Of a stretch of DNA of 64,000 nt, positions 19,002 through 64,000 are shown in pieces. The stretch is from Nitrosopumilaceae archaeon (GTDB lineage Archaea > Thermoproteota > Nitrososphaeria > Nitrososphaerales > Nitrosopumilaceae): NCBI GenBank assembly GCA_965203465.1, contig CBDBCR010000001.1, positions 1-64,000 on the forward strand, in the 5' to 3' direction. Below the pieces are notes generated by a model, which worked only from the letters and a program-made list of their open reading frames with translations, was not told the DNA's origin and ran no database searches. A program made the translations under genes and the position numbers. How positions within the stretch are numbered: position 1 is the first letter of the stretch; each line of letters opens with the position of its first letter.

Positions 19002-19056
19002 CGTACGGGCAGGCCGCGGGCCGGAGTCTGTCGTACGGGCAGGCCGCGGGCCGGAG
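19002..19056. repeat. 25-bp direct duplication followed by a G10 run
   Basis: CGTACGGGCAGGCCGCGGGCCGGAG at 19002-19026 and 19032-19056. Confidence 0.85.
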
Positions 19057-19075
19057 GGGGGGGGGCGGCGGACAC

Positions 19076-56750: not shown

Positions 56751-56789
56751 GCCCCGCGCCGCGGGGGGGCGGTTAATACCCCTAACGGT

Positions 56790-57461
56790 TCAGTGCCGCT
56801 TGGGCAGGAACGGCACTATGGCCCGCACGAACTCCATGAGGTTCTTGGTCTGCAGGTACACCTTGCCGGGGCCGGTGATCTCCAGCGTGAGGGCCTCGCC
56901 GCCGAACAGCGTGGTCTTGAAGCCGCCGTGCTTTGCCACGCGGTACGAGGCGGTGGAGCTGAGCGCGACGAGCTGGTAGTTGTCCAAGACCATCTTTTGG
57001 CCCGCCCGCAGCTCCTTTTGGAGGATGCCGCCCCAGGCGTTGACGAACATGGTCCCCGAGCCGACCGTCTTTAGCATGAAGAGGTTGTTGCCGAATATCC
57101 CCTTGGTAAAGCCCTGCCACTTGGTGTCCAGGGTCAGGCCGGTCGTGGAGCAGACGAACGCGCCCGACTGGACTATGAACTCTTCGGAGACCTCGAGCGC
57201 CTCGATGTCGCCTAGCATGTTGCCGGTCAGGCCCAGCAGGCACCCGTCCTCGCGGGCGGTGAACTCGTTGACGAAGAACGACTCGCCGCCCAGGGCCGCC
57301 GCCTTCAGGGACTTTAGGAAGCCGCCCTTTCGCATGCGCGTCTCGGTGCCAATGTCGCCCTGCATGAAGACCATGGCCGCGGCCTCGGCGGTCACGCCCT
57401 CGCCCCTGTCCAGCTCGAATTCCACGAGGCCCGTCGGGTTCTTTACTATCCGGTGCTTCAC
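56790..57461 (-). CDS. TIGR00266/AIM24 family protein
   Basis: AEAAAMV, GGESFFVNEF, GGEAL, GPGKVYLQT. Confidence 0.9.
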   Translation of the reverse strand: MKHRIVKNPTGLVEFELDRGEGVTAEAAAMVFMQGDIGTETRMRKGGFLKSLKAAALGGESFFVNEFTAREDGCLLGLTGNMLGDIEALEVSEEFIVQSGAFVCSTTGLTLDTKWQGFTKGIFGNNLFMLKTVGSGTMFVNAWGGILQKELRAGQKMVLDNYQLVALSSTASYRVAKHGGFKTTLFGGEALTLEITGPGKVYLQTKNLMEFVRAIVPFLPKRH

Positions 57462-57537
57462 GGCGCGGGGGCGGGGGGCGGCGTAATAAGTTGCGCGGTG
57501 CGGCAGGATCAAATATGCCGGGCGCGGGGGGCGGGGC

Positions 57538-57969
57538 GTGAACACGGTGAAGGAGCTGCGCGACGAGCTGGCGAGGGCAAAGGGCGAGCTGGCCAAGGAG
57601 GCGCGCCGCCGTGCCGAGGCCGAAGAGCACATTGCCGAGATGGCCTGCCGCGCGGAAAATCAGGACGAAATAAACAACATACGGAAGGAAATGATATCCA
57701 GCATGGAAAAAAAGTTGTCCATACAAGAAAAACTCATAGACCTGCAGAAAGATCAGATAGGCGAGCATGCAAAGGCGGCGTCCATACGAAATGCCCTCAT
57801 AGCAAACCTGGATCGCGAAGCGGAAGAGAAGAATGCCAGAATGGCCGATCTCGAACGCCGCCTCGCAAAATACGAGGCCGATCCGCCAAGCGAACAGGGC
57901 GAGGGCGCAGAAAAAGCCAGGGCGGCTGAGCTTGCGCGAAACCGTAAAAGCGTCGAACGGTCAAGCTAG
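57538..57969 (+). CDS. Coiled-coil hypothetical protein
   Basis: 143-aa E/K/R-rich heptad-like ORF. Confidence 0.6.
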   Translation: MNTVKELRDELARAKGELAKEARRRAEAEEHIAEMACRAENQDEINNIRKEMISSMEKKLSIQEKLIDLQKDQIGEHAKAASIRNALIANLDREAEEKNARMADLERRLAKYEADPPSEQGEGAEKARAAELARNRKSVERSS

Positions 57970-60900
57970 GCTCGCGGTTTCAGCCCTTTGGCCGGCTCTA
58001 ACCCGTCCATGACAAACATGGCGCCTACCAGCACGAGCTGCGAGTCTGCCTTTACGGGCGCCGCCTTGTCCACGGCTCGATCCGCCAAGTATATCCTGTC
58101 TGCAAGCTGCCGGATCTCCCTGCACATGCGCGCCGGATCCTCCTCGTATTCGCGCAAGATGTCCTTGACGGTGACCGTCCACGGCCCCATCTCGTGTGAC
58201 GAGAGTATCTGGTACGCCTCGTCTGCGTCCTCCTGCGGCAGCCTACCACCGGCTACGGCCTCTACCAGCACGTTCAAGTCGAGGTCGCTTTGGGATTTCT
58301 TTTTAAGATCGAGCACCTTTTTCTTGCCCGCCTCGTTCATGTCACGTATGGCCCCGTGCGCCTCTGCGTCTATTCGCAACAGCTCCTCGAACGATTCGCG
58401 GTGCTCCTCGCCGTCCATGGGCAGATACAGATCCGTCCCCTTGGCGCACGAGATCAGCCCGATTGCCTCCGAGTCGTTCTCGGGCACCTCGGCCCGACCC
58501 TTGGCATAGTCGTACACGACAAAGTGCACCCTGCGGGTCTGACCGTCCTCCTGTAGGTATGCGAGCACCGCCTTTCGACCCTCGCCTTTTTTGCCGCTGC
58601 GCCTGCCCATGGGCACGTCGCCCATGGCCTCGAAGCCTATCTCCTTTACGTGCCGCATGATCTCGTTGATCGGCGTAGACTGCGGCATCAGGTCAGATTC
58701 CGATTCCAAGCGCGCTATCGTCGCGTCCGAATCGCCCTTTTGGCCTGCAAGGGTTCTGATGGTGGGGGCCAAGTTTCCGTTGAAATCTTTTGGGCAGGGC
58801 ATCTTGTCCAAGATCTCGATGTCGGTGCCGACCACGTTGGCTGCCGTGTCCACTTTGGCCAGCAGCTTGCCCACCAGCTTCAACAGGGCATCCAGCTGCT
58901 TGTCCGGATAGCATGCCCGCGAGCGTATCGTCTTGTGGGCGCTGGTAAGCCTGTCTATCCTGCCGGTGCGCTGCACTATCCTCATGGGGTTCCACGGAAG
59001 GTCGTAGTTTACCACATAGTTGCAGTCCTGCAAGTTCTGCCCCTCGGAGAGCACCTCGGTAGATACGAGTATGTCCGCTTCCTTGTCATGCAGATCTTCG
59101 TCCTCAGGCAGGTTGGCCATGGGCGAAAACTGTATGATGTACTTTTGTCTGACTTGCTGTTTGGTGTTGCCGTGTATGAGCAGCACCTCCTTGTCCGGAA
59201 ACGCCTCGCGCATCTTTTCGCGTAAGTGCTTGGCGGTGACCGTGTATTCGGTAAAGACTAGCACCTTGCAACCCTCTTTTTGCAGGGCCCCGTCTGAAAC
59301 GATGGCATCGCGCACGGCCTCGAATTTTTTGTCGATGGTGACCTTTTCAAGCTCTTGGAGCAGGTTGCGCAGTATCTGCAGATCCGACCGCATGTCGGAG
59401 AGCATCGAGCGCTTGTCGTAGCCGGATCCGAGTTTTTCGGTGGCCATCTCTCTGACCATCTGCGCTAGATCTTCTTCCGAATCTTGGCCGTCGATCTCGT
59501 CGTTGCTACACCTTGCAATGGCCTTGTTAAAGTCCCGCACGCGCAGTATTCTGTTCTGTTCGAGCATCTGCTCCACATGCTCGTACATGCGTATCTTGTT
59601 GCCTATGCTTATTCGCACCGCCTCGGTGCTAGACTCGAACCTCTTTAGCAACAGCAGCACTTGTAGGTGGGCCAGCGTCCTGTGCGCCTCGCGCTCCTCC
59701 TTGGGCAGATCCGTGTTGTATCTCTCCAGACCGTACGGGGCCATGGTGAGCGACTTTATGTCTTCGAATAGCCTGCCGAAGATGTCACCGAAGAGCTCCG
59801 CAAGATCGTACCTTATCGGCCTGTACTCGTGCGTCGGAAAGCTTATCAGCTTGCCGGCTATCTTGTCGTCCTTGTACACATCGCGTATGAACGACCGGGT
59901 CCGCCTGATCATAACAGAGTCGAGCAGCTGCTGTATCTTTTCTAGGCCCTGGCTTAGATCTTTGTTGGTCGCATCGCGCATGTGCTTGTACAGATCCACG
60001 ATGCCCACAGTCTCCCAAAAATAGTCGTCTTTGCCCTTTGTGATTATGGACAGCTGATAGTACAGATCCATGAGCGAGTTGTTGATGGGGGTGGCCGTGA
60101 GCAGCAATACCTGCTTGGGCTTGCCGATTGACAGCATCTTCATCAGGTTGAGACGCCTCTGCGCGTTCTTTGAGCGGAAGTTCTGCGACTCGTCTATTAT
60201 CACAAAGTCGATGTTGCGATATTTCCGCAGCTCGTCCAAAAAGCCCTCCCGGCCCATGGACTCCATGCTAGCTGTCTGCCTCACCGTAATGCCCATCTCT
60301 TGGAGCTTTGCGCCCCACATGCTGTCTAGCACCTGCGCGGGGGCCACCAGCATGGCCTTTCTGCCCTCGTAGAATATCTTTTGTCGTATTATCTCAATGC
60401 CCATGTTGGTCTTGCCCAAGCCCGTCGAGTCGGCGATTATGGCCCCGCCATAGCTGCCTATCAGGTGCAGCGCCGTGTCGACCGCGTCCTGTTGAAAGGC
60501 GGTCAGCGACGCGCCCCGCCGGTACGGCCGATCTGACCTCCTTAGGAACTGCTTGAACTTTTCAAACAGCATCTTCATGTAGACATCGTGCGGCTCTGCC
60601 GGCGCACCGAATTTCGACTGCTTTAGCACGCGCATCAGGTCCTCTTTCGCGTCAGACGCGTCGGCCCACATGCGGTCGAACCACTTGCGGGTCTGGGTGG
60701 TCACGCTAGGCTGGTACAGGCCGGCGTTGAGCTCGTAGTTGCCCGCAAGCCCGGCGCCGGTCAGGTTGCTGGAGCCGATAAAGACCGAATTGTCCCCCAG
60801 TATGTAGCATTTGGAGTGGTTGAACCTGCTCTGGCCGAGCCGCACCTCTATGTTGGGCCTTTCCAACAGCCGTATGAGGCTCGCCGCGTCCCCGTACGAG

Positions 60901-61208
60901 CTCGGCTCCAGATCCTGCACATCCAGCTGGGCCTTTACCGAGCGCGGCTCGTCGAACCTGCTTGCCAGTTCTTCGAACGTCTCTTCTGAAGGTAGCATGG
61001 CGCCCTTGCCCATGAGCAGGCGCATTTTGAACGAGCCGTCCTCGGCCGCCTTTTCGATGTTTTCGCGCAAGAGGCCGTACCCGGCCACGTCGAAATACCC
61101 TGTGGACACATCAAACTGTTTCGCGTGCGGGATCTCCGAATTGAGCACATCCCGCATGGTGACATCCGACGAGTTGTCGATGATGTCGCGCTTGATGCGT
61201 TCGGTCAT
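57966..61208 (-). CDS. PLD-nuclease / SNF2-family helicase fusion
   Basis: HSKCY...GSSNLT...NYELN PLD motif; ADSTGLGKT, DESQ, TATPINN, SEGQNLQ, LPWNP..QRTGRIDR. Confidence 0.9.
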   Translation of the reverse strand: MTERIKRDIIDNSSDVTMRDVLNSEIPHAKQFDVSTGYFDVAGYGLLRENIEKAAEDGSFKMRLLMGKGAMLPSEETFEELASRFDEPRSVKAQLDVQDLEPSSYGDAASLIRLLERPNIEVRLGQSRFNHSKCYILGDNSVFIGSSNLTGAGLAGNYELNAGLYQPSVTTQTRKWFDRMWADASDAKEDLMRVLKQSKFGAPAEPHDVYMKMLFEKFKQFLRRSDRPYRRGASLTAFQQDAVDTALHLIGSYGGAIIADSTGLGKTNMGIEIIRQKIFYEGRKAMLVAPAQVLDSMWGAKLQEMGITVRQTASMESMGREGFLDELRKYRNIDFVIIDESQNFRSKNAQRRLNLMKMLSIGKPKQVLLLTATPINNSLMDLYYQLSIITKGKDDYFWETVGIVDLYKHMRDATNKDLSQGLEKIQQLLDSVMIRRTRSFIRDVYKDDKIAGKLISFPTHEYRPIRYDLAELFGDIFGRLFEDIKSLTMAPYGLERYNTDLPKEEREAHRTLAHLQVLLLLKRFESSTEAVRISIGNKIRMYEHVEQMLEQNRILRVRDFNKAIARCSNDEIDGQDSEEDLAQMVREMATEKLGSGYDKRSMLSDMRSDLQILRNLLQELEKVTIDKKFEAVRDAIVSDGALQKEGCKVLVFTEYTVTAKHLREKMREAFPDKEVLLIHGNTKQQVRQKYIIQFSPMANLPEDEDLHDKEADILVSTEVLSEGQNLQDCNYVVNYDLPWNPMRIVQRTGRIDRLTSAHKTIRSRACYPDKQLDALLKLVGKLLAKVDTAANVVGTDIEILDKMPCPKDFNGNLAPTIRTLAGQKGDSDATIARLESESDLMPQSTPINEIMRHVKEIGFEAMGDVPMGRRSGKKGEGRKAVLAYLQEDGQTRRVHFVVYDYAKGRAEVPENDSEAIGLISCAKGTDLYLPMDGEEHRESFEELLRIDAEAHGAIRDMNEAGKKKVLDLKKKSQSDLDLNVLVEAVAGGRLPQEDADEAYQILSSHEMGPWTVTVKDILREYEEDPARMCREIRQLADRIYLADRAVDKAAPVKADSQLVLVGAMFVMDGLEPAKGLKPRA

Positions 61209-64000
61209 TTGCCGATCTCCTCGAAGAACGGCATCGCCGCTTTGCGCACCTCGCCGTAGAACCGTTTGAGCGTCCTGTTGTCTGACCAGTCGGCAGTCTC
61301 TGCGTCGCGTAGCGAGGGATCCTCGTCAAACTTGAACGAGTCCAGCACGGTCTGGTATTCGTCTTTGGAGAGGCCGTAGGCGTGCGCTACGAGCGCGTCC
61401 AGCCGAGCGGTGGCGTCTATGCGGGTTGCGGGAGACAGCGGTTCTGGTTTGAGGCCGAACGAGTCGCCAAACGATTCAAAAGACCTCCCCCCCCCCCCCC
61501 CCGGCTGGCAACGCCAGAGTCAAAACGGCCGCCATGGTTGTTATTTCTTGGTCATGTTTTGAGGGGTTTGGGGCGAACAGGTGCTTGAATATAGTAGATG
61601 CGTCCATTTGGATTTTTGCCCGTGCAATAAAATCAAACGTCATGGAGTTGAGCACTCCTGTCAAGTACGCAAGTTTGTGGTGGTATAGGTCGCCAAACGC
61701 TACTTGGTGGTTCCGAGTCAATATGATGCTACGTAATGCGGTTGTGTGAAATGTGTGCGGCGGTATAATCGATGAGAGCATAGTTCTCATGTCAGTGGAA
61801 CGGGCTATGTTACGAAATACTATCATAAACGATTCATGGAAATCACTACAATGCCCTATATATAGTTTTTTCTTTTCTAGCCTATTCAAGCCGGCAGATT
61901 TGTTTGCGGTAAAATCAGGAGTTCTAAAAGCGGAATTGAACTGGTGCATGTCCTTCCCTTTCATTACGGGCCAATCTTTACCATCTTCCTTGAACAGATC
62001 AGAATCATTGGAGGCGTCGAAACAACGGGAAATTGATATTTGCCATCCATCACTTGAAACTGATCCAAATGTTGGACATTCTGACAGTTTTGTAAGTAGT
62101 GCGTATGCTTTTGTAGAAACTTCCGGTATGGCCAAATCTATGGGTGAAATTTTGTTTATAGAATTTTTAGAGCAGATCGTAAATTTGTTGTTTTCGGTAG
62201 ATTTGTCTTTTAGAGAAGATAGGTCGTGTAGATAGAACGCCGCGGGAAATTGATCTGATCCAGATCGATTTCGTACAGTAAGTAATGCAAATCTGTAGCT
62301 TGAGTGAATGTCAAATATTTTTTTCTTGTTTTCAAACACATACACCTGCATAACATCCATATCAAGTAGTCGCCTGCGCATATCTACAGATCCCGCGTTT
62401 GAAAGAATTTGGGATGGCAATAACACAGAGATTATTCCGTCGTCTGAAACTAGATTTAGCATGCGCTCCAACACTAGTTGCCATAAATCTTTGTCACCGG
62501 GGCCCTGTAGTTCGTAAGTCTTGTAAAAGTAGGCTTTGTCTTTAAACGACTCGATATACGCTTCATGCGATCTGTGTAGGTTAGAATCTTGGAGTAGCTC
62601 TTTGACTCTCTTTTGTTTTTTGGTATTAGGTGTCAAATAATTAAAATTGTGATCATGTGGCGTAAAAAATTCGTCAATTGACGGCTTTGATTTTTCCCAC
62701 GGAGGGTTACCCACCACAAGATCAAATCCATGCCGTGAATCAGTGAAAGCATCCATCATCTCCAGCTCCCAATGGAAAAATGAATGTTGTTCTGCCAGTT
62801 TTACTATCCGCTGTTTGGCTACGACGATCGCCTCATCTGTTGAAGGTCTGGTCAGTCTAGAGATGAACTCTATTTTTCCCTTTTTCGGAAAAACGGATGG
62901 ATCTATACGCGAAGCGGTCAGCGCATCCAATGCCTCTTGATGTATTCTAACTTGTTCCTTGTATTCTGTGTATTCCGTGCGGCTCGCACGGGCCTGTTTT
63001 ATTGTAACATCAGGACTGTAGCTTACTCGAGCTAGAGTGCTACCGTGTTCTGTAGGATCTGGCAACCACTCGTCAAGCGAGTGGGTTTGTGGATCTCTCA
63101 TACAAACCATCCATTCGCCAATAGTTGAATCTCCCTGTTTGATATGGTGATCTAGATAGGTCAACGGCACCCCAATTGCGAACGAGTCTAGCCAGAGAGA
63201 CAACCGCGCTAGGTCTACTGCGAGGGGGTTTAGATCCACGCCGAATATACACCGCTTCATGACTCTACGTTTGAGTAACACATCAGCGGTCAACAGGTTT
63301 TCGTCGATCGTGATATTCTTGTCTGCTTGCGCACGTACGACAGCCTGTCTGTCTGCTTCGATCTCTGCCACAAGTGGATGATCGGGGTGCGAGTTGAGCA
63401 TCTCGGTGGCCCATTGCGTTATCTGGTTCAGCGCTTCGACCAAAAAGTGGCCCGAGCCCATCGCCGGATCGAGCACCTGTAGATCGAGTAGCCGGTCTAT
63501 GCAGGCAAAGTAGTTTTTGTTGGACGGATCAGCTTTGTGTTTTTCAATGTCGCCGGCGACCAAGCGTCGGCGCTTTGCGAGTAGCGGTTCCAAGCCCCGC
63601 CTGACCAAGAAAGAGACTATTTCTGTCGGCGTATAAAAGCTGGCCGACATCTTACGCGAGGCGATTCCTCTGCCGGATACCAGATACAAGTCGTTTTTCT
63701 TGTACGAGTAGGTCGATTCTTCCTTTGATTCTACTTCTCGCACGCCATTCTCGTCCTCTAACAACATAATGTCCCTATCAGCTTGTCTTATGTCGAATTC
63801 CAATAGCGCCTCGTATATGTTGCCCAAGTGCCGGACGCCCAAGTCCCCATAGTCTACCGGCAACCCGTCTGTCTCCGACAGCGACCGCAGCGCCCGCGCC
63901 ATGAACCGGTTGCGTACGCGGCCCGCATCGAGCCGCTTCTGAAACAGGTCGCCGGCGTACTGCGGCAGGTTGTGCTCCGGGCTGCCGTCCCTAATGCCGT
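61205..64000 (-). CDS. Type IIG/Eco57I-like N6-adenine methyltransferase (5' partial; frameshifted at G16)
   Basis: SFYTP, LDPAMGSGHFL, GVDLN, GNPPW; C-terminal LDALVAHAYGL frame ends at TGA overlapping helicase ATG. Confidence 0.9.
61487..61502 (-). repeat. Poly-G16 tract within the methyltransferase gene
   Basis: 16 consecutive C on the + strand; longest homopolymer noticed in the window. Confidence 0.95.

Follow-up and report, generated by a model that had tools for sequence, protein, structure and literature searches.

The stretch of DNA analysed here (the window) comprises the first 64,000 nucleotides (nt) of contig CBDBCR010000001.1, called C1 below, from the genome of a Nitrosopumilaceae archaeon (GCA_965203465.1; 2.26 Mb in four contigs, C1 to C4, 65% guanine plus cytosine (GC), 96.9% complete). 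Near its right-hand end it carries, on the minus strand, a gene for a DNA adenine methylase that is interrupted by a long poly-G run. The in-window part of this gene (61476..64000) encodes a gamma-class N6-adenine methylase domain and a target-recognition region, and the gene extends beyond the window to a first ATG at contig position 65219, which gives 1,247 codons before the break. As a preliminary description of the window had noticed, a tract of 16 Gs on the coding strand (C16 on the plus strand) lies within the methylase frame at 61487..61502, minus strand; it encodes a glycine run in a linker and is the proposed site of slippage. The upstream frame ends in ...AAVLTLALPAGGGGGEVF and, with 16 Gs, meets a premature TGA three codons past the run (61476-61478). 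Directly after the run, from 61486 down to 61205, a second minus-strand frame stays open for 93 codons (RSFESFGDSFG...RLDALVAHAYGLSKDEYQTVLDSF...FFEEIGK, then a stop). It encodes the out-of-frame tail of the methylase, a C-terminal helical bundle, and its TGA (61207-61205) overlaps as ATGA, at 61205-61208, the ATG (61208-61206) of a helicase gene of 1,080 codons (57966..61208, minus strand) with PLD (HKD) and SNF2 domains. Because the downstream frame starts on the base that follows the run, 15 or 18 Gs, or any multiple of three, would join the two frames, which are out of register at 16 or 13. The joining of frames and the overlap with the helicase start thus hold as first described, with a continuation of 93 codons rather than about 95.

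An in-frame allele would encode approximately 1,337 residues, within the range of 1,299-1,383 seen in intact homologues; at 16 or 13 Gs the product has 1,247 residues, 1,244 of them native and three out of frame. Besides the run, there is no stop or frameshift across the 1,247 + 93 codons. In tblastn comparisons, intact homologues carry this tail in frame at their ends (29-80% identity, and 48-80% to most of them), and it is conserved in two homologue alignments. The named relatives of the gene come from metagenome-assembled genomes (MAGs) of Nitrosopumilus, Nitrosopumilaceae and Cenarchaeum.

The methylase matched the Pfam families Eco57I (5.9e-20) and MmeI_Mtase (3.4e-08), both above their cut-offs, and the PADLOC profile REase_MTase_IIG (4.2e-83) over profile positions 386-1167 of 1250, the remaining ~80 positions corresponding to the out-of-frame tail. 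The S-adenosylmethionine-binding and NPPY-type motifs of gamma-class N6-adenine methylases are both present (DPAMGSGHF and NPPW) and are invariant or nearly so across 16 aligned sequences, and a target-recognition domain lies in the same polypeptide, as judged from the PADLOC IIG alignment together with fold matches that include recognition domains at low TM-scores. The preliminary description had called the protein type IIG-like, which fits its adenine methylase and recognition domains, a built-in nuclease being doubtful. The window methylase does carry D-X9-E-L-K (DVAPSYTAVAELK) in its N-terminal region; across 16 homologues, however, the E position is occupied by E, T, G or A and the K position by K, R, S, Q, E, N or D, so that an MmeI-like D-X9-E-X-K nuclease was dropped as a feature of the family. 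Neither Pfam nor NCBIfam detected a nuclease domain in the methylase. A type IIG label, with the nuclease in the same polypeptide, appears doubtful on the basis of these alignments, and the nuclease of the module may be the PLD domain of the helicase instead.

The helicase, the likely partner of the methylase and possibly co-switched with it, matched Pfam PLDc_2, SNF2-rel_dom and Helicase_C, as well as the PADLOC models HKD+Snf2 (1.1e-45) and DrmD (7.6e-36). The two genes form a conserved module: in homologous loci the helicase gene comes directly after the methylase gene (31 hits by tblastn, of which 30 lie outside the window's own locus and some are duplicate loci). Downstream of the helicase lies a 328-codon open reading frame (ORF; 56782..57768, minus strand) with no family matches. 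Neither the methylase and its tail nor the helicase nor this ORF exceeded a curated NCBIfam cut-off.

The placement of the run within the fold was examined in a structure model covering the C-terminal 918 residues of a homologue, the closest named one that is intact (60% identical, from a MAG titled uncultured Cenarchaeum sp.). In this model the tail forms five helices, with predicted local distance difference test (pLDDT) means mostly of 84-94 over 10-residue blocks. The glycine run aligns with an insertion at model residues 809-822, a low-confidence loop between the recognition domain and the helical bundle; among the last 420 residues, pLDDT drops below 50 in only two segments, one of them residues 812-822. 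According to the model, a glycine run of variable length should be tolerated in this loop.

Two further copies of the module are present in the same genome, making three in total. A paralogue at C1:358-362 kb, 300 kb away and 68% identical, carries G9 at the same codon (C1:361748), one base out of frame, and retains the conserved tail and its own helicase with the same ATGA overlap. The third copy, on C3, is repeat-free and intact. Among 151 sampled genomes, 18 contain a homologue. The preliminary description had proposed a comparison of orthologues, and this was carried out on 25 distinct genes (16 + 12, with three duplicates removed) at the junction where the recognition region passes into the tail. 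Five of them have a repeat at the junction (G16, G9, C15, C10 and (CT)11), and each of these is frameshifted at its repeat; the remaining 20 are repeat-free there and read through. C15 and (CT)11 belong to two genomes of one other genus and C10 to a third genus, and these three repeats sit ~20 codons upstream of the G16 site, following the conserved motif IKxLPxP. At a third site, ~236 codons past its start, a homologue from the same genus bears a G12 that is in frame. The occurrence of three repeat types at two nearby loop positions suggests that this part of the gene has gained a switch independently more than once.

The run in the window belongs to a genome-wide set. The genome contains 52 G/C runs of at least nine bases, with a second length mode at 11-15: counts for lengths 5 to 10 are 3890, 934, 172, 20, 3 and 4, and those for lengths 11 to 16 are 8, 10, 10, 7, 6 and 2, with two more runs of length 18. 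Under a model of independent and identically distributed bases, 1.4 runs of at least 13 would be expected versus 27 observed, and 0.05 runs of at least 16 versus four observed. Runs of at least 12 Gs occur in all five genomes of the genus (this one and 4/4 others), in 3/20 other genera of the family, one of which has runs of up to 26, and in 0/16 other families of the order. In a single-contig genome of 1.64 Mb from another genus of the family, runs of 12-26 lie in regions with a GC content of 0.38-0.66, one of them inside an apparent methylase motif. A search of the archaeon's genome (96.9% complete) for MutS_V and MutL domains gave no hit, a likeness to Campylobacter, which is likewise not known to have MutS or MutL.

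Six DNA-methylase genes have runs in or at them, namely two type IIG-like genes and four N6_N4 methylases. One of the N6_N4 methylases is split into two frames by a G12, and its same-genus orthologue (67% identity) has the site without the run, which indicates that individual runs are not conserved across species. One further run lies 75 nt before dndB, and one in a gene with a ParB_N domain. Another 17 runs are located at most 90 nt before the start, or within the first codons, of 16 ORFs of 1,336-9,057 codons (by crude ORF calls), all 16 with signal-peptide-like starts; of six of these giant ORFs that were sampled, four had Ig-like, FG-GAP, LVIVD/EPTP or CopC domains and two were without hits. 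Many of the giant-gene runs sit 0-10 nt after a TATA-like box and 4-17 nt before the start codon, and the arrangement of TATA-like box, G12-16 and start can be seen, for example, at C1:505630, C2:92781, C3:442058, C3:519272, C3:609216 and C4:5436. Run length would set the distance from TATA box to start in these cases, a possible archaeal analogue of bacterial promoter-spacer switches. Taken together, the run-bearing genes are a repertoire typical of bacterial phasomes.

The strand of the runs is nearly uniform within each contig, with G on the plus strand in 19/20 runs on C1, 4/4 on C2 and 3/4 on C4, and on the minus strand in 23/24 on C3. The only orc1/cdc6 gene lies at C1:114018-114281, where the gene-strand bias flips; to its right on C1, 18/18 runs have G on the plus strand, and the run of the window, to its left, has G on the minus strand. 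This pattern implies that G lies on the strand running 5' to 3' with the presumed replication fork, and replication itself, G-structure or the co-orientation of genes are possible sources of the bias. A repeated element of ~45 nt holding G12-13 was noted at C1:313659, C1:689416, C1:812511, C3:87230 and C3:385563, with the run interrupted in the fifth copy (GGGGGAGAGGGG), and was not found in the four other genomes of the genus. The second run of the window, a G10 at 19056-19065, lies in an intergenic region of direct repeats.

Length data for the G16 tract are at the level of contigs, from the assembly and from Logan. Contigs of runs X6 and X7, which represent one sample and hold 99% of the sampled words, have 13 Gs versus 16 in the assembly, and in these contigs (16.2 kb and 7.1 kb) the sole difference is three letters missing at the first base of the run; the data thus do not fix a single length. 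Contigs of two other runs, X8 and X1, lie over this place without the three-letter deletion. Small shares of the region were present in five sponge-metagenome runs, and the contigs of one of them, X1, are ~95% identical to its flanks. Close relatives of the archaeon occur in sponge metagenomes. Short contigs contributed extra summed depth at the tract (184.9 vs 5.97 in X6 and 178.2 vs 96.9 in X7); reading this as additional alleles was rejected, since the X6 excess is far above the depth of the organism and indicates unrelated poly-C/G matches.

In host-adapted bacteria, switching restriction-modification and surface genes by repeat-driven phase variation is a textbook strategy. We interpret the G16 run as a hypermutable slipped-strand ON/OFF switch of a defence-type DNA adenine methylase, and assign to this reading a probability of roughly 0.7. 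When the run length is a multiple of three, the ribosome would read through a linker of five to six glycines into the 93-residue helical bundle, giving the full-length enzyme of ~1,337 residues, and translation would end on the TGA within the ATGA overlap with the PLD+SNF2 helicase gene. At other lengths, such as 16 or 13, it would stop three codons past the run and 268 nt short of the helicase start, producing a truncated protein that lacks the C-terminal bundle and is probably inactive, and coupling to the helicase by termination and reinitiation would be lost. The changes in length would be fast and reversible within the population, the truncation would abolish activity, and the helicase would be co-regulated; effects on methylation, restriction or the helicase are what we infer from this arrangement. 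The contingency locus proposed in the preliminary description is supported by the repeat in the paralogue, the repeats of homologues at the junction and the genome-wide set of runs, and of the within-population length variation that it also entails, the assembly and the X6/X7 contigs offer the lengths of 16 and 13, respectively. Its suggestion of translational coupling to the helicase likewise agrees with the ATGA in both the gene and its paralogue and with the helicase following the methylase in nearly every locus, the effect of such coupling being a prediction.

Several observations weigh against slipped-strand switching at this site. Both observed lengths, as well as the paralogue, correspond to the OFF state, and an ON allele of the gene was not seen anywhere. 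The X6/X7 sample may be the source of the assembly, and the difference between 16 and 13 may reflect heterogeneity of the population or a difference in homopolymer calling or consensus. No close orthologue (>70% identity) with a length change at the exact site was found, and contigs of JGI metagenomes gave zero matches either to the exact flanks of the run or to a degenerate pattern covering both paralogues. Typical switches are 5'-proximal; here the run is 93 codons short of the 3' end, so that the truncated protein might keep activity. The structure model is mediocre overall (mean pLDDT 67.5, from a 16-sequence alignment), with the recognition region and the tail confident. Finally, a NucS_C domain is present in the genome.

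One alternative is that the gene is a decaying pseudogene, in which a frameshift at an incidental homopolymer has inactivated a module now under erosion, with no role in switching. This would account for 16, 13 and the G9 of the paralogue all being out of frame, a loss that the intact, repeat-free third paralogue could compensate by supplying the function, and the GC content of 0.35-0.47 in a stretch of the methylase gene versus 0.65 in the genome, suggestive of a foreign origin, points the same way. Erosion sits poorly, however, with 1,247 + 93 codons that are otherwise unbroken and with a tail 48-80% identical to most intact homologues, and an incidental G16 is expected only 0.05 times per genome. 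Moreover, five members of the family have been broken independently at repeats of three types in the linker zone, unlike random decay, and we consider a pseudogene unlikely. That length has been miscalled, the true run being stable and in frame (15 or 18) and the frameshift an error of assembly or base calling in a gene that is constitutively ON, gains from the disagreement of two consensus procedures, perhaps on the same data, over 16 or 13, which marks the length as hard to call, and from the fact that all five repeat-bearing homologues come from assemblies where such errors are possible. Yet both called lengths are out of frame, the homologue with (CT)11 is frameshifted too although a dinucleotide repeat is atypical of homopolymer error, and the in-frame G12 of the same-genus homologue illustrates that runs can be called in frame. 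This explanation appears to us distinctly unlikely, and even a miscalled run of 13-18 Gs would still be a slippage hotspot.

A third alternative is recoding: RNA polymerase slippage or ribosomal frameshifting would yield a fixed mix of truncated and full-length protein at any DNA length. Long homopolymers do promote transcriptional slippage, and the tail is conserved despite all observed alleles being out of frame. Against it, the repeats vary across homologues (9, 10, 15 and 16 nt, and a CT dinucleotide), recoding is unnecessary in most homologues, and the same kind of run is found in promoters, where recoding is irrelevant; we hold it to be quite improbable.

The broader proposal that the archaeon has a genome-wide phasome, in which ~50 hypermutable poly-G runs toggle six methylases, a Dnd-type system and about 16 giant secreted surface proteins, seems to us slightly better than an even bet. 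In such a phasome, coding runs would act by frameshift and promoter runs by a mechanism peculiar to archaea, altering the distance from TATA box to start of mRNAs with short leaders or none, all oriented with the replication fork; bet-hedging of a kind regarded as typical of bacterial pathogens would have evolved independently in a symbiotic archaeon, and recurrently in this methylase family.

The closest parallel to a slipped-strand switch in the methylase is Cj0031 of Campylobacter jejuni NCTC11168, a restriction-modification enzyme of Type IIG that is phase-variable (PMC4889913). The two loci share a poly-G run within the coding sequence, a large single-polypeptide adenine methylase with target recognition and, on the slipped-strand reading, frame-dependent ON/OFF states and a genome with many poly-G contingency loci. 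They differ in that the host of Cj0031 is bacterial, whereas the window locus is archaeal, with its run in a linker that precedes the last 93 codons, with an overlapping PLD+SNF2 helicase gene and with a built-in nuclease unsupported; switching, motif and phenotype are demonstrated for Cj0031, and for the window locus switching is a prediction. The Type III mod phasevarions of Haemophilus, Neisseria and Helicobacter (PMC5909438 and PMC3230613) also combine a repeat in a methylase/specificity gene with a helicase-nuclease partner and have many repeat-bearing paralogous methylases per genome, but the window has an Eco57I/MmeI-type gamma-class domain and PLD+SNF2 rather than Res. At the level of the genome, the poly-G phasome of Campylobacter (PhasomeIt, PMC6321876) similarly comprises dozens of G/C homopolymers concentrated in restriction-modification and surface-structure genes. 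The runs of the archaeon are longer by comparison (mode 11-15), many lie between a TATA-like box and the start of a giant protein, and their strand is nearly uniform relative to the presumed origin.

Among defence systems, class 1 DISARM (DrmMI, the SNF2 helicase DrmD and the PLD nuclease DrmC) resembles the module in that the methylase matches DrmMI models (8.3e-51) and the helicase matches DrmD (PADLOC 7.6e-36, NCBIfam 4.5e-43) and, weakly, DrmC. The PLD and SNF2 domains are fused here, however, the NCBIfam DrmD score is 147.7 versus a cut-off of 610 bits, and neither DrmA nor DrmB was seen among the scanned neighbours (NFACT, a GHKL ATPase, methyltransferases and an ORF without assignment), and an assignment of the module to DISARM was rejected. 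Fold matches of the structure model were to CamA (7lni, E 8e-12), M.BseCI (7qw8), PglX (8q56, E 8e-10) and M.TaqI (2ibs, E 1e-8), at 10-20% identity and query-normalised TM-scores of 0.22-0.35; a sequence search of the PDB with the methylase gave no match at E up to 0.001. Identification of the methylase as the BREX protein PglX was likewise set aside, the NCBIfam model BREX_1_MTaseX scoring 36.2 versus a cut-off of 500 bits. PADLOC PglX models matched at ~1e-7 over roughly 30-100 residues only, and no BREX-specific match was obtained among the scanned neighbour ORFs, BrxA/B/C/L not having been searched for.

A search of the full-text literature, supplementary files excluded, found no described archaeal methylase switched by a repeat and no archaeal poly-G contingency locus. 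One preprint states, by way of its cited references, that contingency loci 'have been described in archaea', and a 2010 survey covers short homopolymers in 18 archaeal genomes (PMC2831843). According to a 2025 review, genomes rich in such loci appear restricted to pathogens and their archaeal distribution is an open question (PMC11868660), and in a survey of restriction-modification in archaea the phase-variable surveys that are cited concern bacteria only (PMC10609329). The slipped-strand reading of the locus as a known bacterial mechanism in a new domain of life appears well supported by the comparisons made here, if unproven at the level of reads. Its placement is unusual, in a 3'-proximal linker and overlapping a helicase-nuclease gene. 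If the runs switch, an ammonia-oxidising archaeon would use the same bet-hedging against viruses, and perhaps against its host; population heterogeneity based on methylation would exist in archaea; and archaeal replication without MutS/MutL would support programmed hypermutation. The genome would also offer a test bed, with two paralogous switchable modules beside a constitutive one.

Further observations concern the surroundings and variants of the module. Within the methylase gene, at window positions 61650-62700, GC content falls to 0.35-0.47 versus 0.65 for the genome and 0.43-0.68 for the paralogue, and this composition suggests a more recent foreign origin of the window's copy. The run was considered as the mark of a swapped recognition domain, an idea not supported, as identity between the paralogues is 0.63-0.80 across the recognition region, no lower than elsewhere, and only GC content differs. 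Just past the window, a divergent gene of 615 codons for a GHKL/HATPase_c_3 ATPase lies upstream of the module (C1:65392-67239) and may be its defence-island neighbour. No transfer RNA gene was found in the 18 kb around the module. In the sponge relative represented by X1, the contigs of the flanks have word depths of ~84-102 and those of the helicase-methylase module ~14-17, and part of the recognition region is without a covering contig; contig depth is a weak measure, and it hints that the module is accessory in this relative.

Two homologous methylase genes on MAG chromosomes (L034 and L041) match over 3.75 kb and 2.83 kb, respectively, rather than 2.5 kb, which suggests insertions within the gene, and the open frame of L041 ends early. 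In another genome carrying a homologous methylase gene (G052, contig C6), a G23 followed after 11 nt by a C36 lies ~40 nt upstream of that gene (L010:221-290), and this could be a hairpin-forming pair or an oddity of the assembly.

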